DNA of 43,576 nt, taken from assembly GCA_028706655.1 (NCBI GenBank), contig JAQTVW010000002.1:1-43576 (forward strand), in the 5' to 3' direction. The stretch's first letter is position 1. Every line of letters starts with the position of its first letter. Shown here piece after piece: positions 22,500-38,864 of this stretch. Source of the DNA: Dehalococcoidales bacterium (GTDB taxonomy: Bacteria; Chloroflexota; Dehalococcoidia; Dehalococcoidales; RBG-16-60-22). The position numbers were made by a program, and so were the translations under genes. Below the pieces are notes generated by a model. That model was not told the origin of the DNA. It ran no database searches and saw nothing but the letters and a program-made list of their open reading frames with translations.

Positions 22500-22551
22500 T
22501 TTGAATCACTAGCCTCAAGCCAAGGCAGCCTACCATAGAATCAGGCACGAG

Positions 22552-22722
22552 TCAACGCCCATTAGCTTTATTCTCCTCTGAATTTTCAAAGCTGGACATT
22601 AGTATCTTAAATACCCTATCTAACCGCTCCCCAGCATCAGGCACTTGGACATATTCCACCTTGACAACTTTCAAGGTGTTGATTCGCTTTCTCCTTTTCG
22701 TTACTTTTGTTTCTGTAGTCAT
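22552..22722 (-). CDS. possible 56-aa ORF upstream of the recombinase (MTTETKVTKRRKRINTLKVVKVEYVQVPDAGERLDRVFKILMSSFENSEENKANGR)
   Basis: Hand-translated and below the track cutoff. No clear SD. Its position suits an accessory or directionality factor, but the call rests only on the open frame. Confidence 0.25.
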   Translation of the reverse strand: MTTETKVTKRRKRINTLKVVKVEYVQVPDAGERLDRVFKILMSSFENSEENKANGR

Positions 22723-22757
22723 TATTATTTGCCCAAGTGCCTTCTTAATAAAATTGT

Positions 22758-23120
22758 CTAGTCCTGATAACCTATAATCCGAACTTGTATACCAAACTGG
22801 GTGAAGAAAGCCTTACCGCCGACTTTCTCAAGATTCTTTTCGTAGCTACAAACTAATATCTTTTGGACTGATGGGGGATACTGCAAGAGATTACGCATAT
22901 ACCTGTCTGCTTTCCCTTGCTGAATGTAAAACTCTGGTTTCTTATAATTAGTGGATTCATAGACCCTGATAAGTTCATTCCCACGATAAACCAGAATATC
23001 CGCACCGTCAGAATACATACCAGTAGACTCTGCTCTGTTTCCCTGCTTACGTTCCCACTCCTTTATCTTTTCTACCCTACGTTGTCCGATATTCCAGCTA
23101 TCAAGCTTTCTCTTGACCAT
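22758..23120 (-). CDS. hypothetical 120-aa protein (weak PD-(D/E)xK-like pattern)
   Basis: AAGGAG lies 9 nt upstream of the ATG at 23120. The segment GADILVYRGNELIRVYESTNYKK loosely resembles a nuclease-fold beta-hairpin. No firm family match by eye. Confidence 0.7.
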   Translation of the reverse strand: MVKRKLDSWNIGQRRVEKIKEWERKQGNRAESTGMYSDGADILVYRGNELIRVYESTNYKKPEFYIQQGKADRYMRNLLQYPPSVQKILVCSYEKNLEKVGGKAFFTQFGIQVRIIGYQD

Positions 23121-23359
23121 ACGTTTATTCTCCTTTCCTGTGGGGGGATTGATTATTCTATCCTTATCACAGGACTCATTATTTTTGCCTTATCTACAAT
23201 GGACTGAATAGCAGGATAACCAGCTACTAACCATTGTTGCTAGACGTACCTTCTACGTGTTACTAACCATATAAACCATCGGTTAGTAAACAAGAGCAGT
23301 TTGGAGCTAGTCTAGCTCTGAGCGTCCTCTAACCAGACTAGCTCCGCACGCTCACCAGA

Positions 23360-23530
23360 CTATGATTTGGGTTCGCTGGTATCAGTGTTAGGAGTGGTCT
23401 CTTTCTTCCGAGGGGTACGACCAGCAGGATATACCCTAAGCTCTATTCTGGTCTTACCACTTGAAGACAGTCTGATTAGCTCAGTCCCCTTTTTGCTCTC
23501 AACTTTGGGTGAGCCATTTTTCCTTGACAT
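23360..23530 (-). CDS. hypothetical basic 56-aa protein
   Basis: AGGAGG lies 7 nt upstream of the ATG at 23530 (the track ORF starts 7 codons earlier). MSRKNGSPKVESKKGTELIRLSSSGKTRIELRVYPAGRTPRKKE... Confidence 0.55.
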   Translation of the reverse strand: MSRKNGSPKVESKKGTELIRLSSSGKTRIELRVYPAGRTPRKKETTPNTDTSEPKS

Positions 23531-23688
23531 CGCTTGTCCTCCTTTCTCCAATACTTGGTCTAGACCTTACTGAAATTAAAACACTGTTTGAGGAAGTGCA
23601 CCAAACATTCAGCTTTGGACGTTTATAAGGAATAGAATGAGATTGATGGAATAAATGTTGAAATGGACGCTAAGAGGACTCTGTAATA

Positions 23689-24582
23689 CTAGACAGATTC
23701 GGAAATATTTGAATTATCTCTTGGGAATCCTTGACGCTTGGTTAGTCCTGATTGTCGCCACGAGTAATCAAGCTTATTTCTTACACGTTTTCTTTGGCGA
23801 TTCTTACTGTCATATAGTCTCTGATATTCTTGTCTTTCTTTTTGATGACTGTAATAGTAGCGGCTCCTGCGTTGTCTTGCCTTGATGACACTTTCCGATG
23901 GAATATCTAAACTGAAATTCTTGAGAATGTTAAAAGCATATTTAGCTTCTTTTCCTGTGATTGGGTCTTGGTTTGAAAGCACAAATAATAACTGACGTTT
24001 TGGGTCTTTCAGCTTGGTTTTTATGAATTCCTGAAGAGTTGGGGTAACTAACTTACCTTCCGAGTCAAAAGCGTATAGATTCTGGTTATATCCTGCCTTT
24101 GCCTTCATTAAACCTGTTTTCAAATACGCTAACCTGTCAGCTTGGTTTTTAGATATGGAAACCTGCCCCAAGATAGCATCGTAAAATTCCTTAGATGTTA
24201 ATTTCTTAGTGCTAAGCTCTTGGAGCTTTTTCGTCTCTATTTCATTCAATTTTTCTAAATCTTGTGTCGCAAGAAGATAACGAGCTGCCACTTCAATCCC
24301 TTGCTCATAATAGTCACTACGTGTGAATTTACCATCAGGAAGGAACGCTTTGTCCCAATACATCTGAGATTTCATTTCAGCTTTGTAATTGTTATCCCGT
24401 ATGTCAATAGCTCTATAACTATCGGAAAGAATCAGATAATAGAGTGGGTAACGTGGTCTAAGTCTAAGCAGACGCCTTGACAATACAATTGCATCTTCAA
24501 AGCGTTTTTTATTCCATAGAAAATCTATCGCTTGCTTGACTAATTCTGCCTCAGTATTTTTCTTATTACGTTGGTTTTTCAT
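23689..24582 (-). CDS. hypothetical 297-aa protein with an Arg/Lys-rich C-terminal tail
   Basis: Long ORF with island-typical AT-rich codon usage. N-terminal helical repeat-like segment (AIDFLWNKKRFEDAIVLSRRLLRLRP); C-terminal RQRRSRYYYSHQKERQEYQRLYDSKNRQRKRVRNK. No recognisable catalytic motif. Confidence 0.7.
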   Translation of the reverse strand: MKNQRNKKNTEAELVKQAIDFLWNKKRFEDAIVLSRRLLRLRPRYPLYYLILSDSYRAIDIRDNNYKAEMKSQMYWDKAFLPDGKFTRSDYYEQGIEVAARYLLATQDLEKLNEIETKKLQELSTKKLTSKEFYDAILGQVSISKNQADRLAYLKTGLMKAKAGYNQNLYAFDSEGKLVTPTLQEFIKTKLKDPKRQLLFVLSNQDPITGKEAKYAFNILKNFSLDIPSESVIKARQRRSRYYYSHQKERQEYQRLYDSKNRQRKRVRNKLDYSWRQSGLTKRQGFPRDNSNISESV

Positions 24583-24687
24583 AAAGCATAATTCACCAAG
24601 AAATGTGCTCCTGCAATTTTAACACCAAAATACTTATCATTGCATAGTAACGAAGCGAAGTAATAAATTATCCCCCCCGCCCTCTTC

Positions 24688-24722
24688 AATAAAAAAGACG
24701 CCCGCCCTTTCAGGGTGGCGTC
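24688..24722 (-). terminator. Rho-independent terminator downstream of the RM gene
   Basis: On the minus strand: GACGCCACCC-TGAAA-GGGCGGGCGTC followed by TTTTTTATT. A GC-rich hairpin in otherwise AT-rich DNA. Confidence 0.6.
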
Positions 24723-24970
24723 GTTGTGTTAGGTACGAATTTATTGAAGTAAAATCAGAAATTCAATTTAGCTTCGCAAATAAAGTGAAAATACGGCAAT
24801 TTATCCCTTTTTATTATACGGTTAGCTTTGGTAAATTATGCCGAAATGGGGCAGAAATAAGGTTTATTTTCTCTTTTTGATGGTGGCAGGAGCTTGTTTT
24901 GAAGCTAAATTCCCAACTGGCACGGGCATTTCTTGCCAAATTTCAAACTATTTTTCAAACGTTAGACCCG

Positions 24971-27628
24971 TTAAAATTCGGTTTTCTCTATCTTGTATAA
25001 ACTAAAGACAATATCATCTATTTGTTGAGTAACGCCTGCTATACTTCCCTTTAAAGCAAGCTCTTGGTCTGGGGCACAACCATTAAGTTTCTGGTTATAC
25101 TGTAATAAACTATCAACCAGATTCCCTATCTTAGACTGTATCTCTTCGGTGCAAGGTTTAAGTGGAAGTTGCTCTAGATAACCTTTTGATACATTGACCG
25201 TCAAATCCGCCTTATTAGTGAAACGATTTCTGAAATAGTAGTTCATCAAGTTTGAGTTTAACAGGGCGAGCACGTACCTAGCATCGAAACTCTTATCCTC
25301 AGTTTTCAGGATTATGTTATTGATGGAAGCAAAAGTGTAATATTGGCTTCGGTCTAAAGTAGCAACAATAGGGTCTAAGCCTCCGCTTATCCTACGAACA
25401 AGGATTTTTTCCTTAGCAAGGAAAATGCTTTCAGGTCTAGCCCTGTGTAATACCTTCCTGTCATAGAGAATGAACTTTTTACTTGGTATGATTCGATACC
25501 TATCAATATCCTTACCTTCAATGAATTTCTTATACTCTTCACCCAGTTTTTTATCGGTAATGTAATTTGCCTTACCTTTGGGAGTGACGATACCCTCAAT
25601 TATTTCTTCGCATATTTTACCGAGAAGTGTACATCCCTCTTCTATCTTAGATAACAATTTATCTGTTTTTTCATCCACAAATATGTTGAATGCTTTTAGC
25701 GGACTAGTGTCAAAATCAAGCTGAGGTAATTCGTTTACAATGAATTTGTTTGAAGTCAAATCTTGTATATCCGATATGACCTTCACCTTGTTAGATTCCC
25801 GTACCTTCTTATCCGCTTCTTTCCTGAGAATGATTACTATCGTTTCGGCTGTTACTTTCTCGAATTGACCTTTCCCTAAATCTACAATTTGTTCGATAGC
25901 ACAGTTATTCAATATAAAATTACGAAGAGGCTCATAGGTGCTTACTCTTAAAAGAGTGTTTGGAACGATGAAGCCAAGCTTCCCACCATCTGATAATCTT
26001 TCAATACCAGCTTCTATGAATAAAGCGAATGTGTTTACCTTTCCGAGTGCTGACTGATAATGTTTTTTGTAGTATCCTTTTTCTAATTCAGAAATAGCCA
26101 TACTACGAGTAAAAATATACGGTGGATTAGAAACAATTATATCGAAAGGTCTATTCTTTAGAAGCTTACTTAGAGAGACTTTTGGTGTATTGGTATCTTC
26201 TACTGAAGATAATGGATGCTCTGTTTCATAGATGTCCAAATCAAAGGTCAACTCAAGCTTTTCAAGGCTGTTACCTCCAACCACATTGAGCTTACTCGTA
26301 GGGTGGTCTAAGTCCTTTAATAGTAAGTTCATTACTGTCAACTGCGTTGCGAAGGGATTAATATCTATACCGAATAGATTCTTTTCTAATATCTTAGCGT
26401 GTATAAGTCCTTCTTCCCATCCCTCAGCAGTATATAGTTTTCGTAATCTATCGTAAGCCTTTATTAAAAAGCCACCAGAACCACAAGCTGGGTCAAGTAT
26501 CTTCTTATCAGGGGTAATATTTACTTCATTCAGAATATAATTGACTAGTAAGTCAGGTGTATAGAACTGCCCCAGTCTCTTTCGCTCTTCCCTAGATATG
26601 TGCCGCTCATAAGCATTACCAAGCACGTCCTTGCTTATTTTGGAAAAATCGTGCTCACCTAGCTTATCAAGTACGAAGTCAATGGTATCGGAATTCCAGT
26701 CAATATCCTCGAAATTAATTGAGTCAAATAAAGGCGATTTATATAGACCCTCAAAACGCTCACCTATTTCGTTAAATGCTATGCTCAGTATGTTACTCGG
26801 CTTCTCGACCATCTGACGCCATTTTGTTATTGCATCCTTAGAGAGCTTCGATTTGACGTGTCCCTTGTCTTCACAAATTCTGAGGAATAGAACTCGATTG
26901 ATTAATGTATAAGCACCTTCTCTGCATAGCTTGTCTATTAACTCAGGGTCAGAAACATCCATCTTTACGTCGGCTGCCCAAACATCAATTATTTGCTTGA
27001 ATTCAAGGTCAGTCTGATAACGAGCTTTGAACTGAGAGAGAAGGTCACTAAATAATTTTTCTCGACACTTGGCTAGGTCATCTATGAGAGTCTTAGCGGT
27101 AATGTTTTCTCTTAGGCTTTCGGCTTGTTCGCTGAGTTTTTTCGCTTCCTGAAGATGCTCCTTGCTAATAAGTTCTGACAACGCACTATAGAACTCAGGT
27201 AAATTTTTGAGCGAAGTCTCAAATAACAATCTGTCTTTAGGATTTGCAATCCCAGCCACGAAGGATTTGTAAATTCTAATCTCTAATCCATTAGTGAGCA
27301 TTACCCACTCAATACCTTTAAGGTAGGCGTAATTAAGCCCTTGATTCACGTGGTTATCTAGCTTCTCATCTAAATCTTTTGTTTCTATAAGAAGCTTTGG
27401 TTTATTATCGAAAATCAGAGCTATATCAGCCTTCTTATTCTCTACGTGATGTTCAAAGTCCATATCTTGCTGAGTGCTGTAACCAAGTAAGTTCAGCAAA
27501 GGAATGACTATCTTAATCTTGACGTTTTCCTCACAGGCACCTTTGGCTTTGCGGACGTATTTATCTACATCAAGATTAGCCAGCGATTTAATTTCTTTCT
27601 GTGCCTGTTTCAATAGATTATTCCTCAA
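24971..27628 (-). CDS. type IIG restriction-modification enzyme (fused PD-(D/E)xK nuclease, N6-adenine methyltransferase and target-recognition domain)
   Basis: N-terminal nuclease-like KADIALIFDNKPKLLIETKDL (D...ExK). Methyltransferase motifs GQFYTPDLLV, ILDPACGSGGFL, LFGIDINPFA, IVSNPPYIF. Long C-terminal TRD-like region. TTG start with no SD. Confidence 0.85.
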   Translation of the reverse strand: MRNNLLKQAQKEIKSLANLDVDKYVRKAKGACEENVKIKIVIPLLNLLGYSTQQDMDFEHHVENKKADIALIFDNKPKLLIETKDLDEKLDNHVNQGLNYAYLKGIEWVMLTNGLEIRIYKSFVAGIANPKDRLLFETSLKNLPEFYSALSELISKEHLQEAKKLSEQAESLRENITAKTLIDDLAKCREKLFSDLLSQFKARYQTDLEFKQIIDVWAADVKMDVSDPELIDKLCREGAYTLINRVLFLRICEDKGHVKSKLSKDAITKWRQMVEKPSNILSIAFNEIGERFEGLYKSPLFDSINFEDIDWNSDTIDFVLDKLGEHDFSKISKDVLGNAYERHISREERKRLGQFYTPDLLVNYILNEVNITPDKKILDPACGSGGFLIKAYDRLRKLYTAEGWEEGLIHAKILEKNLFGIDINPFATQLTVMNLLLKDLDHPTSKLNVVGGNSLEKLELTFDLDIYETEHPLSSVEDTNTPKVSLSKLLKNRPFDIIVSNPPYIFTRSMAISELEKGYYKKHYQSALGKVNTFALFIEAGIERLSDGGKLGFIVPNTLLRVSTYEPLRNFILNNCAIEQIVDLGKGQFEKVTAETIVIILRKEADKKVRESNKVKVISDIQDLTSNKFIVNELPQLDFDTSPLKAFNIFVDEKTDKLLSKIEEGCTLLGKICEEIIEGIVTPKGKANYITDKKLGEEYKKFIEGKDIDRYRIIPSKKFILYDRKVLHRARPESIFLAKEKILVRRISGGLDPIVATLDRSQYYTFASINNIILKTEDKSFDARYVLALLNSNLMNYYFRNRFTNKADLTVNVSKGYLEQLPLKPCTEEIQSKIGNLVDSLLQYNQKLNGCAPDQELALKGSIAGVTQQIDDIVFSLYKIEKTEF

Positions 27629-27649
27629 AATTGGTATTCAACTGGACAT

Positions 27650-27678
27650 ATTATACAACATTGCCTAACCCGAACAGT
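27650..27678 (-). promoter_or_regulatory. candidate promoter for the RM gene
   Basis: Perfect TATAAT on the minus strand (27655-27650), 21 nt upstream of the TTG start. The -35 is only weak (ACTGTT/TTACTG). Confidence 0.3.
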
Positions 27679-27776
27679 AACGCTCGCCGCTTGTTCTGGC
27701 AAAATTCTGAAAACTCACTTTTATTCTGGCACGCCACTAGGCACACCTACTACCCTTCAGTCGTGGGGGATTTTGA

Positions 27777-27893
27777 TTACTTCTTGTTTTTCTTATTCCT
27801 CTTACGCTCTTTGATGGATTCGTCTATATAAGCAAAGACAAAACAGACCACCACCACACAGAGGAATAGACAGATAATCTCCCCAATAGCCAT
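27777..27893 (-). CDS. 38-aa hydrophobic peptide with a polybasic tail (MAIGEIICLFLCVVVVCFVFAYIDESIKERKRNKKNKK)
   Basis: Hand-translated and below the track cutoff. One predicted TM helix plus a Lys-rich C-terminus; weak SD (GGCAGG). Confidence 0.3.
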   Translation of the reverse strand: MAIGEIICLFLCVVVVCFVFAYIDESIKERKRNKKNKK

Positions 27894-28056
27894 AGCCTGC
27901 CAAGCCTATAGCAGTGCCATTGGGAATACAAGCCGACTTTAGTAATACGCCAAGGGAAAAATTGACTTGACTAATGCTTCATTCAAGTAGAAACTAGCTC
28001 TTTGGTTACCCAAACATAAGCACCGAGTTTGCTCTTGACTTTCAACAACCCTACGC

Positions 28057-29142
28057 TCAATTCCAATTTTGTAATTGCATTCTGCACGGACAGGGGTTCA
28101 TTGCGCCGACGAGCATGAAGCTGGCGGGGAAGGTGACTCTCCCCTGGGCGCGACTGATGGTTACGGTTTTATCTTCCAGCGGCTGGCGCAGCAGTTCCAG
28201 CAGGGCGTTGCCGAATTCAGGCAGCTCATCGAGGAACAGGACGCCGCGGTGGCTGAGGCTGATTTCCCCCGGCTTAGGCCAGTGCCCGCCGCCGACCAGC
28301 CCGGCGCTGGAAATGGTGTAATGCGGGGCGCGGAAAGGGCGTTGCTGGACGAGCGGAGTATCCGCCGGCAGCAGCCCGCTGACGCTGTAAATCTTGGTCA
28401 CTTCGAGGGCTTCATCATTCGTCGGCGGGGGCAGTATCGAGGGCAGCGCCCGCGCCAGCAGGGTTTTGCCGCTGCCGGGCGGTCCGCTCATGATAAGGTT
28501 GTGCCCGCCTGCCGCCGCTACTTCCAGGGCGCGTTTGACGTGCTCCTGCCCCTTGATTTCAGCAAGGTCGGTGACCGGTGTTAATAAAGCGGCGGTATGG
28601 TGAGTGCCGTCTGACTTGTAGGCAGAGATGGTTTCCTCACCGCGGAAATGGCTGATAAGGCGGGTCAGCGAAGCGGCCGGGATGATGCGGGCGCCATCCA
28701 CCAGCGATGCCTCGCGGGCGTCTGCCTCCGGGACGATAACTTCCGGGATGCCCTGCTGGTAAGCGAGCCCCACCATCGGCAGGATGCCCGTGGTATGGCG
28801 CAGGTTGCCGTCCAGCGAAAGCTCGCCGAGGAACACGGTCCGGGAAACATCAGCGGTCAACTGTCCTGAGCTGAGCAGGATGCCCATGGCAATCGGCAAG
28901 TCATAAGCCGGGCCGGCTTTCTTGAGGTCGGCGGGTGCCAGGTTGACCACGATGCGTTTCATGGGAAAGGTGCCGCCGGAGTTGCGGATGGCGGCGCGGA
29001 CGCGCTCTTTGGCTTCCTGTACTGCGGTATCCGGCAGACCGACGATGGTAAACGAGGGCAGCCCGCTGGAAATATCCACTTCCACTTCCACAATCGCTCC
29101 GTCCAACCCGACCACGGCACAACTTCTTACCTTTGCCAGCAT
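28057..29142 (-). pseudogene. comM: 5' fragment of comM/yifB: 353 native codons plus an 8-codon island-encoded tail
   Basis: [23 protein letters not shown].., Walker [15 protein letters not shown], Walker [11 protein letters not shown]. ComM similarity ends at ..VGAMNPCPC, followed by RMQLQNWN-stop. Confidence 0.88.
28084..28092. repeat. right copy of the 9-bp att core GCACGGACA
   Basis: Identical to 20903-20911. It encodes the Cys-Pro-Cys of ...AMNPCPC on the minus strand. Confidence 0.8.
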
Positions 29143-29282: not shown

Positions 29283-29912
29283 ATGAAACTGGCACGGACT
29301 CTGGTTTTTATCCTGACCGCAATCTTGATTCTGGCCGCCAGCGTTATTCCGGCTTCAGCGGATAACCGCAGCAACGGCAAAACCACCCCGGGTATCACGG
29401 CTCAGCGTGACGATGACAGTCGCTACGAAAGACACAGGTCAGAGAGCGATCGGGATGAAAACGTAAATGAAGAAGACGAAGACGATGACAGGTACGAAGG
29501 CAGGTATGGCAGATACGAAGACGAGGATGACGACCGGCACGAAGATTGGGATGAGAGGGACGAGGAATGGGATGAGGATGGCGAAGACCGCGATGATGAC
29601 GATGACGTTGTAATCCCGTCCACACCCGCTCCTGTACCGGCACCAACACCAACGCCTGCGCCAACGCCTGCGCCTACGCCTACACCCACGCCGACACCTA
29701 TACCAACCCCGACACCCACGCTTACGCCTACGCCGACGCCCATCAGCGGACAACAGGTATTCAGCGCCAACTGCAGCAATTGTCACGGGTCGGGCGCGCC
29801 GTCAACCTCACGGACTCAGGCACAGCTCAACAGCTTTATTTCGACGCACAATACCGGCAGGAATCTTATCGCAGCGCAAATAGCGGCGCTGGCTTCCTGG
29901 TTGAAGCCGTAA
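29283..29912 (+). CDS. secreted monohaem c-type cytochrome with an acidic low-complexity region and a Pro/Thr linker
   Basis: Sec signal MKLARTLVFILTAILILAASVIPASA/D. A D/E/R-rich stretch, then (P-T/A)n, then a single CSNCH (CXXCH) at 29772-29786. GAGGAGG lies upstream. Confidence 0.75.
   Translation: MKLARTLVFILTAILILAASVIPASADNRSNGKTTPGITAQRDDDSRYERHRSESDRDENVNEEDEDDDRYEGRYGRYEDEDDDRHEDWDERDEEWDEDGEDRDDDDDVVIPSTPAPVPAPTPTPAPTPAPTPTPTPTPIPTPTPTLTPTPTPISGQQVFSANCSNCHGSGAPSTSRTQAQLNSFISTHNTGRNLIAAQIAALASWLKP
29616..29741 (+). repeat. imperfect hexanucleotide tandem repeat encoding the PT/PA linker
   Basis: Reiterated ACN-CCN/GCN-CCN units (PSTPAPVPAPTPTPAPTPAPTPTPTPTPIPTPTPTLTPTPTP). Confidence 0.8.
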
Positions 29913-29974: not shown

Positions 29975-31054
29975 CTATGCTTTTGCTAGGATGGCTGCCT
30001 TGCCGCTAAGCTTGGCGACTTCCTCGCGGTCGTTGCAGAAGGAGAGCATATTCTCCTCGTTGATTTCGCCGTTGCGGTAGAGGTTGACCAGCGCCTGGTC
30101 GAGGAGCTGCATGCCCTGGTGGGTATGCATGCGGATAGTGTTGGGCAGCTGGTAGACCTTGCCTTCCCGGATGAGGTTGCGCACGGCGCCGTTCGCCAGC
30201 ATGATTTCGATTGCCGCCGTTCGCCCTGTCCCGTCCAATCGGGGCACCAGCGCCTGGCAGAGGATGCCGATGAGCAAAGATGCCAGCTGGGACTGAGCGA
30301 GAGGGCGTTCGTGGGGCGGGAACATATCCACGATACGTTCGATAGCCTGGGAAGCGCTGGGGGCATGACCGGTGGTCAACACCAGGTGACCGGTCTCAGC
30401 GACGGTGAGCGCGGCGGCGGCGGTCTCCAGATCGCGCATTTCGCCCACCAGGATCACGTCCGGATTTTGCCGGAGGACGTGTTTCAGAGCCGCGGCGAAG
30501 GACCTGGTATCGGTGCCAAGTTCACGCTGGGTGACGGTGCATTTTTGATTGGTGTGAATATACTCGATGGGGTCTTCAATGGTAATCAGGCGGCGTTTTG
30601 CCGTGTGATTGAGGTAGTTAATCATCGCTGCCAGAGTCGTGGACTTACCGCTGCCGGTTGGTCCGCTGACGACCACCAGTCCGCGCCGTTTCATAATAAG
30701 CTCGCGGCAGACTTCGGGCAGCGCCAGTTCTTCAATCGTGGGGATGGTCATCGGCAGTAGACGGATAACCAGGCTGATTGTGCCGCGCTGGCGGGCGGCG
30801 TTGCAGCGGATTCTTCCGACGTTGGGGATGGTATTGCCGAAGTCCAGTTCCAGCTGGTTCTTGAAGGTGTCGCGCTGCTCTTGCGTGGTAAGCTGGGCAA
30901 AAGCATGCTCCATGTCCGTCGCGGTCAATGCCGGTATCGTATTCGCCGGTTCCAGGTTGCCGTGGATACGCATCATCGGCGGAACGGAGACGACCAGGTG
31001 CAGGTCGGACGCTTTCATTTCTTTGGCGAGTACCAGACACTGAAAAATATCCAT
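29975..31054 (-). CDS. pilT: type IV pilus retraction ATPase PilT
   Basis: MDIFQ..ASDLHLVVSVPPMMRIHG, Walker A GPTGSGKSTT, Asp/His box region; 359 aa. Confidence 0.9.
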   Translation of the reverse strand: MDIFQCLVLAKEMKASDLHLVVSVPPMMRIHGNLEPANTIPALTATDMEHAFAQLTTQEQRDTFKNQLELDFGNTIPNVGRIRCNAARQRGTISLVIRLLPMTIPTIEELALPEVCRELIMKRRGLVVVSGPTGSGKSTTLAAMINYLNHTAKRRLITIEDPIEYIHTNQKCTVTQRELGTDTRSFAAALKHVLRQNPDVILVGEMRDLETAAAALTVAETGHLVLTTGHAPSASQAIERIVDMFPPHERPLAQSQLASLLIGILCQALVPRLDGTGRTAAIEIMLANGAVRNLIREGKVYQLPNTIRMHTHQGMQLLDQALVNLYRNGEINEENMLSFCNDREEVAKLSGKAAILAKA

Positions 31055-31066
31055 ACAAATCCTTAA

Positions 31067-32653
31067 TTACTTATCGGTTTTCTTGAGCGTTAGGATAAAC
31101 TCCATGTACTCGAGAGCCGCCTCCGCAGGCTGAAGCTCCGTAGTATTATCTCCGGTCGTTTCAAGCGCGCCGCCGGACAGGTATGGGCTTTCGCCGGCAG
31201 TCAGGTTGTCAGTGGTGGTATTATCGCTGATGACGTTGCCGAAACCATCTTCAACAACCCGCACCAGCCGGGTAATAATAACCTCCAGGAAACGCTTGCT
31301 CTGCGCCAGATTACGGGCATAGGTAATGACATCGGCTTCGGTATCGGCGGTGCCCTGCAGAGTGACTTTATCGGGGCTGTGGTTAATCCGGCTGAGCGCT
31401 ACGTTGTTTGGTACGTAGCTCACCGTGGACAGGTCGGCGTCTACCGCATCGCCCTGTGTTTGAAGACTATTGAAAGCAGTGACGAATGAATCGCGCACGG
31501 ACTGTGCGGCTTTGATTTTTTTCTCCAGGTCGGCGATGGCGGCGGTCAATTTCGTCTTTTGCGTCTGCTTGTACTGGATGATGTGGTTCGCGTTATCGAG
31601 CTGGCTCTGCACCGATGAAATGTTGGCGGACGCGCCCTGGATGCTCATCACCATCAGCGCCACCAATCCGAGGACTATCGCTGCGCCGGGTATCGCCAGC
31701 AGACGGGACACGGAGATAGGCTTGGGGCGGTAGGGCATCGGCATGGTATTCAGGTTGGTGACCAGCGGACGCGGTTCGTCCAGTTCCTTTAGCGAAAGAC
31801 CCACGTTGACCAGGTACTGCGTAGGCACGGTCTGCCGGGGCGATTTCAGCGGTGAAACCAGCGGCAGCACCGGATGTCCGAGCTCGTTGCCCAGAGCCTG
31901 GCATAACTCCGGTTTGTCCGCGAGGTCTCCCGCGACGAACATCACGACGTTGGCGTCCAGGGGCTTCTCCGGGGAATTGGTGTTGTAGAACTGGATGGTG
32001 CGCTCCAGCTCGTTGCGAACCATCATCAATTTTTCCTGCTCGGTCAGCACTTCGCTGGGGAAAGGCATCGTGCGGACGGGTTGCGGCACGCCATCCATCA
32101 TGACCACCAGGTCGAACTCCGCCGGCTGTACGTCCACGATAATGCAGTTGGGCTCGTTTACGACACGCGCCAGTGCAATGGGTTTGATATCCATCGTCTG
32201 CGGTTTGAGTCCCGCCTGGTGCAGTATCTTCAGGAGATCATCCGCGAGGCGGCACGGAATCGCTACCAGGAATACCCGCGTCTTGTCCTTTTCCGCGCAG
32301 GGGATAGGCTGCCAGGTAACATAAAGCTGCTCCAGCGGGACGGGCAGCAGCCTTTTTGCCTCGCGCATCACTGCTTCTTCGAGCATGGCTTTGGGCAGTT
32401 GGGGCAGCGTCATGGGGCGGGTCAGGCAGTGCAATCCGCTCAGCCCGACGATAACCTTGTTGGTGCGGATTTTTTTCGCCTTGAGCAGTTGCTTCAACTT
32501 GGAAGCAAGCTCTGCCTCTTTGATGGAAGCATTGACCTTGGTCAACCCGAAATCGAGGGGCAGTTCCGCCAGCCGCTTCACCCGCTTGCCTCGTGTTTCC
32601 ATGAGGCGCAGACAGGAATTGTCAATATAGAGTGAGACTATTTTCTTTGCCAT
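31067..32653 (-). CDS. fused PilM-PilN-like pilus assembly protein
   Basis: N-terminal actin-like PilM region (KIVSLYIDNSCLRLME...). A central TM helix LLAIPGAAIVLGLVALMVMSI follows, then a PilN-like coiled coil and periplasmic domain. Confidence 0.8.
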   Translation of the reverse strand: MAKKIVSLYIDNSCLRLMETRGKRVKRLAELPLDFGLTKVNASIKEAELASKLKQLLKAKKIRTNKVIVGLSGLHCLTRPMTLPQLPKAMLEEAVMREAKRLLPVPLEQLYVTWQPIPCAEKDKTRVFLVAIPCRLADDLLKILHQAGLKPQTMDIKPIALARVVNEPNCIIVDVQPAEFDLVVMMDGVPQPVRTMPFPSEVLTEQEKLMMVRNELERTIQFYNTNSPEKPLDANVVMFVAGDLADKPELCQALGNELGHPVLPLVSPLKSPRQTVPTQYLVNVGLSLKELDEPRPLVTNLNTMPMPYRPKPISVSRLLAIPGAAIVLGLVALMVMSIQGASANISSVQSQLDNANHIIQYKQTQKTKLTAAIADLEKKIKAAQSVRDSFVTAFNSLQTQGDAVDADLSTVSYVPNNVALSRINHSPDKVTLQGTADTEADVITYARNLAQSKRFLEVIITRLVRVVEDGFGNVISDNTTTDNLTAGESPYLSGGALETTGDNTTELQPAEAALEYMEFILTLKKTDK

Positions 32654-32654
32654 A

Positions 32655-33212
32655 TTAACCGCCTTGATAGTTGTATACTGATAACGCGATGTGGGCGGCA
32701 GGCACCCCTTCTTCTGATTCTGCCGGTATCACGATATCGGTGGACTCGACCAGACCGGTCGAAAAGTCCGTATTGAGCCTGGCAATAAATTTAATGAGGT
32801 TCGTAACGTCGCCCGTAGCGGTCAGGCTCAGTCCCTGTGTCGAGCATTTAACCTTGGATAAGTCCTCGTCTCTCAGCCCGGAGGAGGTGAGGTCTTCGAT
32901 GGTCACGCTGCATGAACCGGCAAGGTCGAAGATAAAATCCGTCACGTCGATGCTCTCGTTAGCCTGGTGCAGTTTGCCCTGGGCGGCTGCCAGTTCCGCG
33001 TTCATCTTTTCGAGCTTCGCTCTAAGCTCCTCTTGCTGTGTCGTCATCTGCTCCAGCTGGAGCTTGGCGACTCTCTGTTCCGCGACCTCGAGTTCGGTAG
33101 CCAGCTTCTCCTGCTGGCGCATCTGGCGCATCCCCGCGAAGCCCAGGCTTGCGAAAATAATCAGCAATACCCCGCCGATTAACAGTGCCCAGCTCGTTCT
33201 TCCTAGTTTCAT
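32655..33212 (-). CDS. PilO-like pilus assembly protein
   Basis: Start set at the ATG at 33212 (GGAGA 6-7 nt upstream). Signal-anchor TM WALLIGGVLLIIFASLGFAG, a coiled coil, and position between pilC and pilMN. Confidence 0.6.
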   Translation of the reverse strand: MKLGRTSWALLIGGVLLIIFASLGFAGMRQMRQQEKLATELEVAEQRVAKLQLEQMTTQQEELRAKLEKMNAELAAAQGKLHQANESIDVTDFIFDLAGSCSVTIEDLTSSGLRDEDLSKVKCSTQGLSLTATGDVTNLIKFIARLNTDFSTGLVESTDIVIPAESEEGVPAAHIALSVYNYQGG

Positions 33213-33237
33213 AAATTTCTCCGGATACTGTTCCTTT

Positions 33238-34443
33238 TTACATCTGACCGTACATCGAGTACATTGCCGATACCAGCGAAAGCGCAATCACGCCCACCAC
33301 TACCGCGATGGCCAGGGTCATCGCCGGCTGGATGAGCGCAATCAAAGAGCGCGTCCTGTCTTCGGTCTCCGTCTCGTAGGTTTTTGCTACGGCGAGCAGG
33401 GTGGCATCAAGGTTACCGGTCTCTTCCCCCACTTTGACCATCTGTACCATCATAGGCAGGAAAAGCGGGTTTTTGGACATCGGCTGGGACAATCCCTCGC
33501 CCTTGAGCATGTCCTGCTGGACGTCCACGAGGGCTTTCGCCATTGCCTTGTTGTTAGTGCCCTGGATAACCAGCGGCATGATTTCCGTAAGGGGCAAGCC
33601 GGCGGTAAAGAGCAGGGAAATACTGCGGCAGCAGCGCGAAAGCAGATTGAGAAGATTGATATGACCCATCAGCGGCATGGAAAGGATGAACTTGTCCAGG
33701 CGGAATCTGCCGTCTACCGTCCGGGTATAGGCATAAGCAGCCCCCACAACCGCCCCGATGCCTACTATAATGTGGAGTCCGTATTCCCGCAACTTGGCGG
33801 AACCATCCAGGAGAACGCGGGTCAACATCGGCAATTCCGCGCCGAGCGAACCGTACAACCCGGCGAAGGCGGGCAGTACGAAAGTGACCATCACGCCAAT
33901 CACGATTATGGCAACGACCGCAGTAATCGCAGGCAGGGTCAGAGCGCCTTTAATGCTCTTGCTCGCGGCCATCTCTTTTTCCTGGTAGTCTGCCATCTGG
34001 CGCAGCATCGTCTCCAGGTTTCCCGTTTGTTCGCCGATACTGAGCGAACGGCAGGAAATGGGCGGGAATATCGTTGGGTGTTTCGCCATCGCGGCGGACA
34101 ATTGGTGACCGCCGCGGATATCCGCGACAACCTCGCCGAGCACTTTCTTCATCGTGCGGTTGGTAGTCTGCCCGCGCAGCAGTTCCAGCCCGCCGACAAT
34201 GTTAATGCCTGACTCCAGCAGCAAAGCAAGCTGACGGTAAAACAGGATGATTTCCTGGGGCTTCAGCGGGAAGAGTTGCGCCGTCAGCCAGTCCGAGCTG
34301 AGAAACGGCACGAACGGCTTGAGGTTGACCGTCCGGTAGCCGGCATAGCTCAATAGCTCGGCGGCGGCGTCTTCACTGGCGGCGGGCAGCTTGCCCCTGA
34401 CCATTTCTCCTTTAGCGTTGTACGCGATGTACTGATAAACCAT
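33238..34443 (-). CDS. pilC: type IV pilus platform protein PilC (GspF family)
   Basis: Two T2SS-F repeats (LLESGINIVGGLELL...; LFTAGLPLTEIMPLV...). Three TM segments; 401 aa. Confidence 0.9.
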   Translation of the reverse strand: MVYQYIAYNAKGEMVRGKLPAASEDAAAELLSYAGYRTVNLKPFVPFLSSDWLTAQLFPLKPQEIILFYRQLALLLESGINIVGGLELLRGQTTNRTMKKVLGEVVADIRGGHQLSAAMAKHPTIFPPISCRSLSIGEQTGNLETMLRQMADYQEKEMAASKSIKGALTLPAITAVVAIIVIGVMVTFVLPAFAGLYGSLGAELPMLTRVLLDGSAKLREYGLHIIVGIGAVVGAAYAYTRTVDGRFRLDKFILSMPLMGHINLLNLLSRCCRSISLLFTAGLPLTEIMPLVIQGTNNKAMAKALVDVQQDMLKGEGLSQPMSKNPLFLPMMVQMVKVGEETGNLDATLLAVAKTYETETEDRTRSLIALIQPAMTLAIAVVVGVIALSLVSAMYSMYGQM

Positions 34444-34454
34444 AATGCCTCTTG

Positions 34455-35984
34455 CTATTCTACAGAGTACGCATTGCGTAATACTTCAGACGGCGTGGTC
34501 ATATCCGCCTTAACCTTGAGCATGCCGTCTTTCATCAGTGTCGTCATACCCTCTTTGATTGCCTGGGTGCGCAGTTGTGCCGTCGTGGCGCCTTTGGTCA
34601 ACATCGCCCGGATTTCCTCGCTGACATGCAGGAGCTCAAAGATGCCGACACGTCCGCGGTAGCCGGTGCCGGAGCAACTCTTACAGCCGGCGCCATACAT
34701 AAATTTAGTGCGCTCCTCACCCATTTCCTTGCTGTAGGTGATTTGCTCGGTCACCGGGGCGTCTATCATCCGCCCGCAGTTGGTGCATACGCGGCGCGCC
34801 ATGCGTTGAGCGATAACGCCGATGAGCGCCGAGGAAACCAGGAACGGTTCCACGCCCAGGTCGAGTAGCCTCACGACCACGCCGACCGCATCGTTCGCAT
34901 GAATAGAGGACAGCACGAGGTGTCCGGTCAAAGCTGATTGTATCGCGATGCTGGCGGTCTCGGCGTCCCGGATTTCACCGACGAGGATGACGTTGGGGTC
35001 CAGGCGCAGGATAGAACGCAAGCCGCTGGCGAAAGTAATACCCGAGCGGGGGTTGACCTGAATCTGGTTGATGCCCTTAAAACGGTACTCGACCGGGTCT
35101 TCGATGGTGATGATGTTGCGTTTTACCTTGTCCAGGGAGTTGAGCGCGGCATACAGTGATGTCGTTTTACCGGCGCCCGTCGGACCGGAGACCAGGATCA
35201 TCCCATAGGGTACCTTTAACATCTTTTCCAGCTTCTCCAGGCTCGAAGGGAGAAAGCCCAGGTCTGTCATTGAAAGGGTTGCCCGTGATTTGTCCAGAAG
35301 CCGGAGAGTCGCCATTTCGCCGTGCACGTTGGCGATAATCGCCACGCGAATGTCTATCATACGGCCGTTGGTCTTAACGGAGAACTGGCCGTCCTGCGGG
35401 CGGTGGTGGTCGGCGATATTCATGCTGGCAAGGATTTTGATACGGGAAATCAGCGGCACCGCCGTCTTCAGGGGCAGCGAGAACATGTCCTGCAGCGTAC
35501 CATCGATGCGGTAGCGCACGCGCAGCCGGTCTTCTTCCGGCTGGAGATGAATATCTGAAGTCCTTGCCTTGACTGCCTCATCAATTATCAGAGTCAGTGC
35601 CTGCGCCACCGGGGCATCAGTGGCAGTTTCCAGTTTAATTTGCTCTTCCTGCCTCTGCCCGGGCAGGCTAATGTTGGAGACCTGCTTTTCAATCTCGTCG
35701 TAAGCCTTGTAGTTAAAATCGATAGCTTCCAGGACATCTTCGGCGCTTGCCGCCACCGCTTCGATGCGCAGCTGGGTCTTGGAAGCCAGCGCTTCCAGCG
35801 CGAAGATATCTGAGGGATTCGCCATGGCGACGCGCAGCGCATCGTCGTTTACCGCCAGGGGAATGACGGTGTATTTCCGCGCCATCGCCTCGGTGATAAG
35901 CTGCAAGGCTGCCGGTTCAGGAGGAGTATTCCTTAAGTTGATGCGTTTTTCCGCGCCGGGTGATTTTTCTGCCTGTGTAGGCAC
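34455..35984 (-). CDS. pilB: type IV pilus assembly ATPase PilB (GspE family)
   Basis: GspE N-terminal domain (LITEAMARKYTVIPLAV..LRVAMANP), Walker A GPTGAGKTTS, GHLVLSSIHANDA, and tetracysteine CTNCG...CKSCSGTGY. A GTG start at 35984 after GGGAAGGA is preferred over the track ATG at 36092. Confidence 0.9.
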   Translation of the reverse strand: MPTQAEKSPGAEKRINLRNTPPEPAALQLITEAMARKYTVIPLAVNDDALRVAMANPSDIFALEALASKTQLRIEAVAASAEDVLEAIDFNYKAYDEIEKQVSNISLPGQRQEEQIKLETATDAPVAQALTLIIDEAVKARTSDIHLQPEEDRLRVRYRIDGTLQDMFSLPLKTAVPLISRIKILASMNIADHHRPQDGQFSVKTNGRMIDIRVAIIANVHGEMATLRLLDKSRATLSMTDLGFLPSSLEKLEKMLKVPYGMILVSGPTGAGKTTSLYAALNSLDKVKRNIITIEDPVEYRFKGINQIQVNPRSGITFASGLRSILRLDPNVILVGEIRDAETASIAIQSALTGHLVLSSIHANDAVGVVVRLLDLGVEPFLVSSALIGVIAQRMARRVCTNCGRMIDAPVTEQITYSKEMGEERTKFMYGAGCKSCSGTGYRGRVGIFELLHVSEEIRAMLTKGATTAQLRTQAIKEGMTTLMKDGMLKVKADMTTPSEVLRNAYSVE

Positions 35985-36199
35985 GTTTTCCTTCCCTAAA
36001 ATGAGCGTAGTAATACAGATGTATCTTAGGCAGACTTTAGGTTGAGCTACAATAGTCCTTTGGTAATGGGAGAAATGGGTGCCAGCCCCCAATACTGGTT
36101 CAACCGTGAGAAAACAGGCACGATTTCACCGGCGGGGGAGCACGGGAAGGCGCATTACCCGGTACTTTCAGACAGGTACTTTTTACCCGGTTGCGGGGC

Positions 36200-36991
36200 T
36201 TAAGGGTTGCGGAACAACTCCCGGTGTTCTGCCGGGAGCCGGTTGAATTCATCTTTGAGTATCCAGACCAGTTCTTCTTCACCCACTCCGCGGATAGCCG
36301 TGCGCCTGAGCATGAACCTGTCCCGGTAATTGTCCGGCATGGACTCCATCGCGGCGAAGCCGCGCTGGGCGAAGCAGAAGGTGACCGGTCCGACTTTCTG
36401 CAGCCGGGAAGCGATATTGATGCAGTGTCCTACATAATCCTTGCCGTCACCCACGGAAAAGACCCTGCCCCGCGCAATGCCGCAGCGGAGCACGTACGGC
36501 GCCTTGTCCACCGCCGCGCTGATTTGCGGCAGGAATTCCGTCTTATACGCATGCGAAACCTCGCACAGAAGCGTGAGAATGCGGCTGACCACCGGCCGGC
36601 TCATGCCGTTAGTATCCCAGAGGAACAGCACACCGTCGCCGTGGAATTTGGAAAGGAAGGGCAGTTCCGCCCATTTCTGATTGTTGCTGTCGGTAAGGCC
36701 TGCCGATATTTTATTGAACAGCCATTCCAGGAAATCCTTGAGGTAGGTGTGAATGGACAGGTGCTGATCGACCTGGTTGCAGAACTTGGTAAATCCGGCA
36801 AGATCGAACATGACCGCCATCGCCTCGATTTCTTTCGAGGGTAAACTTAAATCCCCCAGCATGGTGGAACTAAATGGCGCCGGCTGGAGTTTGTTCGCTG
36901 CTGACGGGTTCTTTGCCGGGCTCTTTTTGACTCTTTTCGCTGCAGACGCTTTGACCCGTCTTCTTACTCTTCTGATGATTACTCTGCCCAT
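36200..36991 (-). CDS. minimal class III nucleotidyl cyclase-domain protein with a polybasic N-terminus
   Basis: MFDLAGFTKF (metal Asp), KFHGDGVLFLW (second metal Asp plus Lys), RCGIARGRVFSVGDGKDYVGHCINIASRLQ (Asp, Asn and Arg of the catalytic core). The start is 1 nt after the upstream stop. Confidence 0.75.
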   Translation of the reverse strand: MGRVIIRRVRRRVKASAAKRVKKSPAKNPSAANKLQPAPFSSTMLGDLSLPSKEIEAMAVMFDLAGFTKFCNQVDQHLSIHTYLKDFLEWLFNKISAGLTDSNNQKWAELPFLSKFHGDGVLFLWDTNGMSRPVVSRILTLLCEVSHAYKTEFLPQISAAVDKAPYVLRCGIARGRVFSVGDGKDYVGHCINIASRLQKVGPVTFCFAQRGFAAMESMPDNYRDRFMLRRTAIRGVGEEELVWILKDEFNRLPAEHRELFRNP

Positions 36992-36992
36992 G

Positions 36993-37730
36993 TTATACTC
37001 TCACTTTGACAAACGGGAGAATTTGAATGCCCGTCTTCGGTTTTATCTCGAACTTGATGGTATCGCCAGAGCGTACCTCGGCGCCGCGTAATTTGCGGAT
37101 TTTTAATATTCTTACCGCGCGGTTGTCAATGCCCTCGGTCTTGAAAGCGGCTTCGTCCATGGTGATATGCAGATAATAGTCGCTCATATCGAAGATGCGC
37201 GTTGCCGTGGACTTTTCCAGCACGTGCGTACTGACCACCAGGATGACCGACCTGCCGCTGGCGCATTGTTCCTTGAAAGATTGGAACAGGTCCATCTTGG
37301 CGGCAGGGTTCATGCGCACCATAAAAGGAGTTGCCGCATCTATCACCACCACGTTGAAGCGTGCGGGCAGTCCGCGCACGGAATCTATAAGGTTTTCCGT
37401 AGTTTTTGCCAGGTTGCCGCGCACCACCAGAGAATGCAGAGAACTAATTCTGAGGCGGTCGGTGGTGTAAAAATGCTGCACCGGCAGAGACAGCATCTCC
37501 ATCTGCGTGATAAGGTCGGTGAAGTTGCCGTACATCGTATAGTAAGCGACGGAGTTGGTCGTGGCAAGCAGAGTGCTGAAGGTCAGGTGCTGGCACATCA
37601 CGCTCTTGCCTGATTTGGATTCGCCCTCGATAATCGCCAGGGAATTCGGCTGGATGCTGCCCCCGACGAGGGCGGCGATTTCCCGGCTTCCGCTGTTGAT
37701 GGCATCTGACGTACTTGTTACATTCAGCAT
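36993..37730 (-). CDS. KaiC/RecA-superfamily single-domain ATPase resembling archaellum ArlH (FlaH)
   Basis: LAIIEGESKSGKSVMCQHLTFSTLL (Walker A), VAYYTM, ITQMEMLSLPV, VVVIDAATPF (Walker B-like), C-terminal ILKIRKLRGAEV...IKFEIKPKTGIQILP; 245 aa. Confidence 0.75.
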   Translation of the reverse strand: MLNVTSTSDAINSGSREIAALVGGSIQPNSLAIIEGESKSGKSVMCQHLTFSTLLATTNSVAYYTMYGNFTDLITQMEMLSLPVQHFYTTDRLRISSLHSLVVRGNLAKTTENLIDSVRGLPARFNVVVIDAATPFMVRMNPAAKMDLFQSFKEQCASGRSVILVVSTHVLEKSTATRIFDMSDYYLHITMDEAAFKTEGIDNRAVRILKIRKLRGAEVRSGDTIKFEIKPKTGIQILPFVKVRV

Positions 37731-37970: not shown

Positions 37971-38864
37971 GTGCGAGAGGAAATTGAAAGCTTTCTGAAT
38001 TACCTGAATGTGGAAAAGGGTTTTTCCGGCAACACCCTTTCGGCATACCGGAATGACCTGAGCCAGATGGCGGAGTATGTGCAGAAGAAATCTGGCTCGT
38101 GGGTAAATTTCGACCGGCAGGGCATGCTGAGCTACATGCTTAGCCTAAAGGAAAGAAATTATGCCCCTACTACCGTCGCCCGTAAAGTCGCCGCGGCGCG
38201 CTCTTTCTTTGCTTTCCTGGTGGCGGAACGACTCATCAGGACCGACCCCACGGAAAATATGAGCTCGCCCAGCGTGGGCAAAGCGTTACCCAAGCCGATT
38301 TCCATCAGCCAGGTGCGGCGCTTGCTGGAACAGCCTGCCAAGCTGAATACCGCCGAAGCGAAAAGGGACAGCGTCATGCTGCAACTGCTTTATGCCAGCG
38401 GCATGAGAATCAGTGAAATGTCGGCGCTGAACATCGGCGATGTCGATGTCTCCGCCGGATTCGTCCGTTGTTTCGGCAAGGGGCACAAGGAACGCATCGT
38501 CCCCATCCACGAACAGGCGGCGCAGGCGGTCAAGACCTACATCGAAGAAGTACGTCCGCAGCTTGCCCACTCCGAAAACGAAAAGGCGCTCTTCCTTAAT
38601 GCCCGCGGCGAACGGCTGACCCGGCAGGGCTTCTGGCAGAAACTCAAAGAATACGCCAAAGCCGCCGACCTGGGTACCAAGGTCAGCCCCCATACCCTGC
38701 GCCACAGCTTCGCCACGCACATGCTCAGCGGCGGGGCAGACCTGAGGGCGGTGCAGGAGCTGCTGGGTCACGCCAACATCTCGACAACCCAGATTTATAC
38801 CCACCTGACCAACGAACATATCCGCCGCACGTATGAAAAAGCTCATCCCAGGGCGAAAGGCTAG
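37971..38864 (+). CDS. xerD: tyrosine site-specific recombinase XerD
   Basis: LTRQGFWQKLKEYA and RHSFATHMLSGGADLRAVQELLGHANISTTQIYTH (R-H-R-Y catalytic set). GTG start 4 nt after GAGGAGG. Confidence 0.85.
   Translation: MREEIESFLNYLNVEKGFSGNTLSAYRNDLSQMAEYVQKKSGSWVNFDRQGMLSYMLSLKERNYAPTTVARKVAAARSFFAFLVAERLIRTDPTENMSSPSVGKALPKPISISQVRRLLEQPAKLNTAEAKRDSVMLQLLYASGMRISEMSALNIGDVDVSAGFVRCFGKGHKERIVPIHEQAAQAVKTYIEEVRPQLAHSENEKALFLNARGERLTRQGFWQKLKEYAKAADLGTKVSPHTLRHSFATHMLSGGADLRAVQELLGHANISTTQIYTHLTNEHIRRTYEKAHPRAKG

Follow-up and report, generated by a model that had tools for sequence, protein, structure and literature searches.

The stretch of DNA analysed here, called the window below, is 43,576 nucleotides long and comes from contig JAQTVW010000002.1 of a Dehalococcoidales bacterium (assembly GCA_028706655.1). 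It contains two adjacent genes on the minus strand, coding for an ATPase that resembles the archaellum protein ArlH/FlaH and for a minimal class III nucleotidyl cyclase, and these lie directly 5' of the genes for a bacterial type IV pilus (T4P). A first-pass annotation, made from the sequence alone, had placed the pair at the head of the pilus operon and proposed that it controls the pilus motor. Our analysis leads to a different reading, to which we give an even chance: rather than heading the pilus operon, ATPase and cyclase would make up a small pair for cyclic-nucleotide signalling. The features of the locus are as follows.

36993..37730, minus strand: ArlH/FlaH-like single-domain ATPase of RecA/KaiC fold, 245 aa
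36992, minus strand: the single base between ATPase and cyclase (ATPase TAA 36995-36993, cyclase ATG 36991-36989, reading TAA c ATG)
36200..36991, minus strand: minimal class III nucleotidyl cyclase, 263 aa; residues 1-41 are a disordered, polybasic N-terminus and about 50-263 the catalytic core
35985..36199, minus strand: non-coding spacer between cyclase and pilB, 215 nt
36023..36067, minus strand: promoter-like block 5' of pilB, ATTACCAAAGGACTA-TTGTAG (36052-36047)-18 nt-TAAGAT (36028-36023)
34455..35984, minus strand: pilB, 509 aa from GTG 35984 (T2SSE E = 6e-124, MshEN E = 3e-17, TIGR02538 PilB E = 1e-153)
33238-34443, minus strand: pilC, which with the next three genes makes up the remainder of the pil operon
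32655-33287, minus strand: PilO-like
31067-32653, minus strand: PilM-PilN fusion
29975-31054, minus strand: pilT
37971..38864, plus strand, divergent: XerC/D-type tyrosine recombinase with Phage_integrase and SAM_1 domains

The two open reading frames of 245 and 263 aa, 1 nt apart and 5' of pilB-pilC-pilO-pilMN-pilT, are exactly where the first-pass annotation had put them, and all of the motifs that it quoted are present in the two proteins. The window sequence matches a landfill metagenome, in runs of DNA only, and its nearest relatives are metagenome-assembled genomes of Dehalococcoidales. The single-base junction is compatible with translational coupling of ATPase and cyclase. The start of pilB needed correction. 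The TTG start given by the open reading frame finder is too far upstream, and the GTG at 35984 is preferred because it is preceded by a Shine-Dalgarno-like GGAAGGAAAAC, because the ATG of the closest related locus (L001) aligns with it, and because the resulting length of 509 aa is typical of close homologs. The gap between cyclase and pilB is therefore 215 nt, which is not a tight operon junction.

Against NCBIfam, the ATPase matches the FlaH profile PRK06067 (E = 1e-35, 123.5 bits) and the ArlH profile NF052589 (E = 7e-32, 111 bits), and has a weaker match to KaiC (E = 1e-6). Both of the better scores are about half of the curated cut-offs, which are 194 bits for FlaH and 215 bits for ArlH. 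When the PDB was searched with phmmer, the only full-length matches were the FlaH structures 4yds (1e-10) and 4wia (1e-9). The AlphaFold2 model (pLDDT 81.9) was compared with known structures using Foldseek, and again gave 4yds (E = 7.5e-18, TMt 0.84) and 4wia (E = 4e-16), with KaiC and PH0284 behind them at about 1e-12. Profile, PDB sequence and fold thus all support the conclusion that, among RecA/KaiC proteins, FlaH/ArlH is what the ATPase most resembles, beyond a generic likeness to KaiC or RadA, and to this extent the original assignment stands.

The active site is less canonical. Walker A is G36-x4-G41-K42-S43 and Walker B is D131, and both K42 and D131 are invariant across 75 aligned sequences; the Walker A Lys and Walker B Asp serve ATP binding, on which the interaction of ArlH with ArlI depends. 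D131 is followed by Ala, compared to the Asp-Ser/Thr of RecA-type proteins. Tyr67 aligns with E57 of 4yds (SaArlH) and with a Gln in 4wia. The catalytic Glu (E57 in SaArlH, Gln in Euryarchaeota) is required for both ArlH autophosphorylation and motility (bioRxiv 10.1101/2021.03.19.436134). In the same 75-sequence alignment, Tyr is found at this position in three sequences only, those of the window, L001 and L128, and these make up a single clade. No arlI, arlJ, arlF/G or archaellin gene was found beside the window ATPase, whose neighbours are the cyclase and a bacterial-type pilB; the window PilB scores 59 bits (E = 3e-16) on the FlaI model NF058587, for which the cut-off is 550. The ATPase is a degenerate relative of ArlH and no bona fide ArlH, because it falls below the cut-offs, has Tyr67 at the catalytic position and has no arlI or arlJ neighbour.

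In a survey of 80 metagenomic loci centred on the ATPase, the family splits into two subtypes, of 238 and 245 aa. The 238-aa subtype sits in clusters with ArlF/G-like proteins, ArlJ (E = 1e-116) and ArlI (663 bits, above the cut-off), in the order ArlF/G-like, ArlJ, ArlH, ArlI, and a 238-aa Chloroflexota ArlH from such a cluster scores 250.7 bits on PRK06067 and passes. Genuine archaellum clusters, with ArlJ and ArlI, enclose this subtype only. Such bacterial clusters have already been described for Chloroflexota, including Dehalococcoidales (PMC12488501). The 245-aa subtype carries an insertion of eight residues (193-200) and is mostly solitary among housekeeping genes, with birA 3' of it in 17 loci and hisZ/hisG and NfeD/SPFH genes nearby. 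The catalytic position is Glu in all 39 of the 238-aa sequences, and varies in the 245-aa subtype (Asp in 20, Glu in 12, Tyr in 3 and Gly in 1). The window ATPase is 33-37 % identical to the 238-aa ArlH proteins of Dehalococcoidia/Chloroflexota archaellum loci. It follows for annotation that a 245-aa protein called 'FlaH' in Dehalococcoidia is no evidence of an archaellum.

Some further observations were made on these loci. Complete archaellum-type clusters, of the published type (PMC12488501), are found in L086-L127, on Chloroflexota-like metagenome contigs (for example L122:5550-15660), and consist of ArlF/G-like proteins, ArlJ, an acidic protein of 330 aa, ArlH and ArlI. Behind them come repeated histidine-kinase/response-regulator pairs, joined in L098, L110 and L127 by two GAF-HD-GYP-like genes. 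There is also an ATPase homolog labelled 'Bacteroidota' (P0235).

The 263-aa protein gave no match in Pfam or NCBIfam at default thresholds. The best that Pfam PF00211 offers is 14.2 bits (cut-off 21.9; E = 0.033), over residues 163-201 only, and there are no precomputed Pfam matches on any of its homologs, many of which are named 'class 3 adenylate cyclase' by the JGI pipeline. A profile built from the family and run against the PDB found CyaC from Spirulina (1wc1, E = 0.005), with the KFxGD, RCG and NxxxR motifs in register. The AlphaFold2 model has a pLDDT of 82.8, with the core above 90 and residues 1-41 predicted to be disordered. All of its top 50 Foldseek matches in the PDB are class III cyclases; CyaC is the best of these (E = 2e-10), CyaB (3r5g) matches with a TMt of 0.73, and the Pycsar cUMP cyclases 8jsz and 7r65 are also among the matches (E ~1e-7).

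The catalytic residues are predicted to be D63 and D119 for metal, K115 and D185 for the base, R169 for phosphate, and N192 and R196 for the transition state. An alignment of 34 family members shows all of these to be invariant except for D185, which is conserved in at least 90 %; among 50 relatives the same six are again invariant, and the sole variation is D185 to Glu in four. Fold and full catalytic set together support the view that this is a very divergent class III cyclase, as the first-pass annotation had said. D185 lies three residues before a conserved Gly and seven before N192, which is the position of the Asp that specifies adenine in canonical class III cyclases. Because the position matches, the earlier call of a Lys/Asp pair (K115/D185), and hence of a purine and probably ATP as substrate, is sound. 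The product is most likely cAMP. Since all of the catalytic residues are on one chain, we infer an active enzyme of the homodimer type. The polybasic N-terminus is also as described, with 13 Arg/Lys among its first 34 residues, and its MxR[VI][IV][VI]RR motif is kept throughout the family. With 490 representatives in 1.84 billion at E <= 1e-3, and 134 at E <= 1e-30, the family is small and isolated; it is almost confined to Dehalococcoidia.

Neighbourhoods of the cyclase were surveyed in 47 GTDB species representatives, of which 46 are Dehalococcoidia/Chloroflexota and one is Fibrella aquatilis. At about 33 of the 47 loci, a gene for a GAF + HD_5 protein (HD-GYP type, with HHERFDGKGYP) lies some 36 nt 3' of the cyclase, and about 19 loci also have a protein of metallo-β-lactamase (MBL) fold, with a match to Pfam Anti-Pycsar_Apyc1 and a weak one to PDEase_II. 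The former is likely to be a sensor of cyclic nucleoside monophosphates (cNMP) fused to a phosphodiesterase of cyclic di-GMP (c-di-GMP) type, and the latter is likely to be a phosphodiesterase of Apyc1/class II type that serves as the cNMP eraser. The conserved unit can thus be described as a cassette of writer, reader-effector and eraser: cyclase, GAF-HD-GYP and cNMP phosphodiesterase. Class III cyclases, HD-GYP proteins and Apyc1-like enzymes are all known already (PMC9117128); the Dehalococcoidia cassette that combines them was not found in the searchable literature.

Among GTDB species representatives, the cyclase family was found outside Chloroflexota only once, in F. aquatilis (L047:10085-10753; Bacteroidota; 47 % identity); the neighbours of this gene are unrelated, and horizontal transfer is its probable origin. 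In one sub-clade (L019, L028, L030, L033, L036 and L042), an Ala/Glu/Lys-rich repeat protein of 230-300 aa (family F16) is encoded 5' of the cyclase on the same strand; it has a transmembrane helix at its C-terminus and matches no Pfam model, and GAF-HD-GYP is absent at these loci.

No cyclase was found at any of the 80 loci in the ATPase-centred survey. The closest relative is L001, from the cyclase-centred survey, where the ATPase, cyclase and PilB are 77, 65 and 92 % identical to those of the window. Targeted look-ups of the nearest relatives of the ATPase gave further pairs. In L128 the order is ATPase (53 %, with Tyr), cyclase (56 %), GAF-HD-GYP and MBL phosphodiesterase, and there are no pil genes; L129 is a second contig that has the same ATPase protein and the same start of the string. 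In L137 the ATPase (47 %, with Tyr) has a cyclase directly 3' of it. Among the paired loci, identity to the window proteins drops to 47 % for the ATPase and 53 % for the cyclase. The Tyr-type ATPase is therefore linked to a cyclase in all four distinct loci (the window, L001, L128 with L129, and L137). Among loci with at least 500 nt of downstream sequence, a cyclase was found 3' of none of the 23 non-Tyr ATPases of the 245-aa type and none of the 27 of the 238-aa type; in L139, which has Gly at the catalytic position, there is likewise no cyclase directly 3'. Literature searches on a KaiC-like/cyclase pairing and on cyclase-pilus links in Dehalococcoidia gave nothing relevant, and neither a family of ArlH paralogs outside archaellum loci nor a Tyr-variant ArlH clade tied to a cyclase was found in the searchable literature. 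L128 also contains REC-HD-GYP and GAF-GGDEF-HD-GYP proteins within 9 kb (L128:996-4720), a local cluster of genes for c-di-GMP turnover.

The link to the pilus genes is much narrower. L001 is the only one of the cyclase-centred loci that has the string ATPase-cyclase-pilB-pilC-pilO; it is absent from the 46 others, two of which have pilB 6-7 kb away, and the pair was found beside pil genes at none of the 80 ATPase-centred and none of four pilB-centred loci. The pil genes themselves are well conserved, with PilB orthologs of 505-511 aa at 72-92 % identity, and the gene order of the window is seen also in L134-L136. In L134 and L136 (PilB 76-77 %, XerC 72-74 % identity), which share an ETF/SpoIIM/PCMT backbone with the window, xerC and pilB are direct divergent neighbours and pilB is the first gene of pilB-pilC-pilO-pilMN-pilT; in L135 and L133 other genes precede pilB. 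In the window, xerC would accordingly mark the upstream edge of an insertion.

Alignment of the region upstream of pilB from six loci (the window, L001 and L133-L136) shows a common block, ATGACCAAAGAGCTATTGT[A/C]A-N17/18-TAAGAT, whichever gene lies upstream, and the cyclase-proximal part of the spacer has diverged between the window and L001. The block has the look of a -35/-10 promoter that belongs to the pil operon itself, with an element upstream of it. It came from the comparative alignment, a scan with consensus promoters and terminators being indecisive. Within it, the ATGACCAAAGAGCTA element is strongly conserved immediately 5' of the -35-like TTGTAA in the six Dehalococcoidia loci, and is a candidate regulator-binding site or UP element of the pil operon. 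A riboswitch or other known RNA in the spacer was considered and rejected, as there was no Rfam match in the window at gathering score or in the spacer at E <= 1.

PilB is of bacterial type, as originally stated, with MshEN and T2SSE domains and a tetracysteine motif (two CxxC pairs). Binding of c-di-GMP by its MshEN domain was considered as a connection between cassette and pilus, and was set aside since there is no obvious RLGxxLL-type motif: the RLGxx(L/V/I)(L/V/I)xxG motif is not evident in the N-terminus of the window PilB when read by eye. PilB homologs of 857 aa (P0276) and 723 aa (P0353) from related metagenomes, at 65-70 % identity, are fused to response-regulator receiver domains (PF00072), so that in some Dehalococcoidia the pilus ATPase may be under direct two-component control.

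The reading that we prefer, a cyclic-nucleotide signalling pair, can be put as follows. Chloroflexota acquired an ArlH together with the archaellum, and the ATPase would be a paralog of it that has left the archaellum locus. With Tyr67 it would still bind ATP and no longer autophosphorylate, and may act as a non-catalytic regulatory partner of the cyclase, which would make cAMP from ATP. On the most economical account, the pair entered between xerC and the pilB promoter, in an ancestor shared by the window organism and L001; we favour insertion because xerC is next to pilB on the same backbone in L134 and L136, and because the promoter-like block is kept in six loci. The pil operon would have kept its own promoter afterwards. 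Several points weigh against this reading. The coding strand of the 215-nt spacer has no terminator-like hairpin and there is no Rfam match, so read-through from the pair into pilB is possible and the genes may be co-transcribed. A tblastn search of the window found neither a GAF-HD-GYP nor an MBL phosphodiesterase gene. The product could be a pyrimidine cNMP, given that related Pycsar cyclases make cCMP/cUMP and that enzymes of Apyc1 type are broad (PMC9117128). The ATPase is no general requirement of the cyclase, since 43 of the 44 cyclase loci with enough upstream DNA have no ATPase adjacent. The link itself is adjacency in four distinct loci of one clade, which shared ancestry could explain; the distance between the genes varies (1 nt in the window, about 39 nt in L001, about 145 nt in L128), and a simple neighbour-joining tree places the cyclases of the window and L001 apart from that of L128.

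Two of these points, the 43 cyclase loci that have no adjacent ATPase and the variable distance, also speak for the alternative that the two genes are functionally independent neighbours, their adjacency being a historical accident inherited within one clade. The cyclase would then work alone and the ArlH paralog would have some unrelated job, like the 245-aa paralogs beside birA and hisZ; it fits that most 245-aa ATPases are solitary among housekeeping genes. We regard this as possible, if on the unlikely side, since the adjacency persists down to 47-56 % protein identity, across contigs of different samples and in different downstream contexts (the pil operon in one, GAF-HD-GYP and phosphodiesterase in another), and the pairing coincides exactly with one active-site substitution in the ATPase, Glu/Asp to Tyr; the 1-nt TAA-c-ATG junction in the window also argues against it. 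There is also a more ambitious version of the pair, which we think unlikely: an archaellum motor component would have been acquired from Archaea, duplicated in Dehalococcoidia, changed from Glu to Tyr and re-used as the ATP-sensing subunit of a cyclase, giving a KaiC-like/cyclase switch that converts nucleotide or phosphorylation state to a cNMP signal and that, set before the pil operon in the lineage of the window, also feeds pilus expression or PilB activity.

The dedicated pilus-motor module of the first-pass annotation makes all of the genes one operon, with the ArlH-like ATPase docking on the PilB hexamer as ArlH does on ArlI, or the cyclase product tuning PilB/PilT, or both. In favour of this model, cAMP and c-di-GMP are established regulators of T4P in other bacteria; the pair lies on the same strand directly 5' of pilB, and the coding strand between them shows no terminator-like hairpin; the arrangement is retained in L001; and PilB shares with ArlI the T2SSE ATPase core, as reflected in the NF058587 match. 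Binding of ArlH to ArlI is nucleotide-dependent (PMC5019145; bioRxiv 10.1101/2021.03.19.436134). The synteny surveys, on the other hand, found the pair beside pil genes only in the window and L001 (1 of 44 cyclase-centred, 0 of 80 ATPase-centred and 0 of 4 pilB-centred loci), an outcome that the annotation had itself named as telling against its proposal. The Tyr-type pair occurs without pil genes in L128, hundreds of genomes have PilB orthologs (72-92 % identity) without the pair, pilB is the first gene of its operon in L134 and L136 and has its own conserved promoter-like block in the spacer, and the catalytic Glu/Gln without which ArlH does not function in vivo (bioRxiv 10.1101/2021.03.19.436134) is missing from the ATPase. 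A direct role of the ATPase at PilB has no comparative support, and we consider the model quite improbable; gene order alone over-stated the pilus link here. Most improbable by far is a role of the pair in anti-phage defence, as a Pycsar-like system in which the cyclase makes a cNMP alarm signal and the NTPase is an accessory. The PADLOC matches to PycC that suggest it are only marginal (E = 0.0036 and 0.033), and we rejected this reading, even though the cUMP cyclases 8jsz and 7r65 are among the fold matches and the MBL partner of the family matches Anti-Pycsar_Apyc1. Canonical adenylyl and guanylyl cyclases outscore the Pycsar enzymes in the fold match; no transmembrane, TIR or other effector gene adjoins the cyclase, whose neighbours are the ATPase and pilB here, and GAF-HD-GYP and MBL phosphodiesterase elsewhere; these partners contain signalling domains (GAF, HD-GYP); the context is stable and chromosomal, with redox and housekeeping genes as neighbours across dozens of Dehalococcoidia, and not in variable islands; and the Apyc1-related MBL phosphodiesterases of B. 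subtilis prefer cAMP/cGMP (PMC9117128).

The analysis defines a family of class III cyclases that is invisible to Pfam, together with its conserved cassette of cyclase, GAF-HD-GYP and Apyc1-like phosphodiesterase. Dehalococcoidia are important in dehalogenation and in subsurface carbon cycling and are poorly tractable, and the cassette gives them a testable signalling route from cNMP to c-di-GMP. It also provides a physiological context for host-encoded Apyc1-like enzymes, whose role was raised as an open possibility by Hobbs et al. (PMC9117128). If the pairing of ATPase and cyclase is functional, it would be the first case of an ArlH/KaiC-type protein outside the archaellum or the clock serving as partner of a nucleotide cyclase, and would mean that a horizontally acquired part of an archaeal motor has been re-used for bacterial second-messenger signalling.

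Elsewhere in the window, pilT is followed on the plus strand (29283-29912) by a gene for a secreted protein of 209 aa, which combines an acidic stretch with a Pro/Thr-rich linker and a CxxCH motif, and then by an interrupted comM. In L134-L136, pilT is followed immediately by genes for a pilin (N_methyl) and for a prepilin peptidase (A24); a motif search of the 43.6-kb window found no pilin-like N-terminus and no prepilin peptidase. The comM/yifB gene (Mg-chelatase-like; window 20441-29142) is split, with its N-terminal part at 28057-29142 and its C-terminal part (Mg_chelatase 158-206 and Mg_chelatase_C) within 20441-21025, both on the minus strand. Between the halves is an island of about 7 kb with a GC content of 37-41 % against about 58 %, which contains genes for a large serine recombinase (20772-22499), a 297-aa unknown protein (23689-24582) and an 885-aa methyltransferase-like protein (24971-27628). 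It looks like an integrated element in comM.

Compared with known systems, the locus recalls the control of T4P by cAMP and c-di-GMP (Cya/Vfr in Pseudomonas; PilB/MshE of MshEN type) in having a cyclase beside an MshEN-bearing pilB, but differs in that the pil linkage is not conserved and the window has no CRP/Vfr, GAF or PilZ receptor. The cyclase resembles Pycsar PycC (7r65, 8jsz) as a minimal stand-alone enzyme of cyclase fold and similar size, with weak profile and fold matches, but it has no adjacent effector, a housekeeping-like context and the Lys/Asp signature of a purine (adenine) enzyme. It is closer to the homodimeric bacterial class III adenylyl cyclases, such as Spirulina CyaC (1wc1), P. 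aeruginosa CyaB (3r5g) and M. tuberculosis Rv1625c, with which it shares the fold (TMt 0.65-0.73) and has its catalytic residues in register. It differs from them in its low identity (15-19 %, below the PF00211 threshold), in having no sensor or membrane domain and instead a conserved, disordered polybasic N-terminus, and in a family-specific C-terminal extension (about 205-263). Finally, the ATPase shares with ArlH/FlaH (4yds, 4wia) a single RecA/KaiC-type domain of about 240 aa, with the Walker A Lys and Walker B Asp. It is set apart by the insertion at 193-200, Tyr67, the Asp-Ala of Walker B and scores below the cut-offs, and by its surroundings, where in place of archaellum genes it has a cyclase as its partner.

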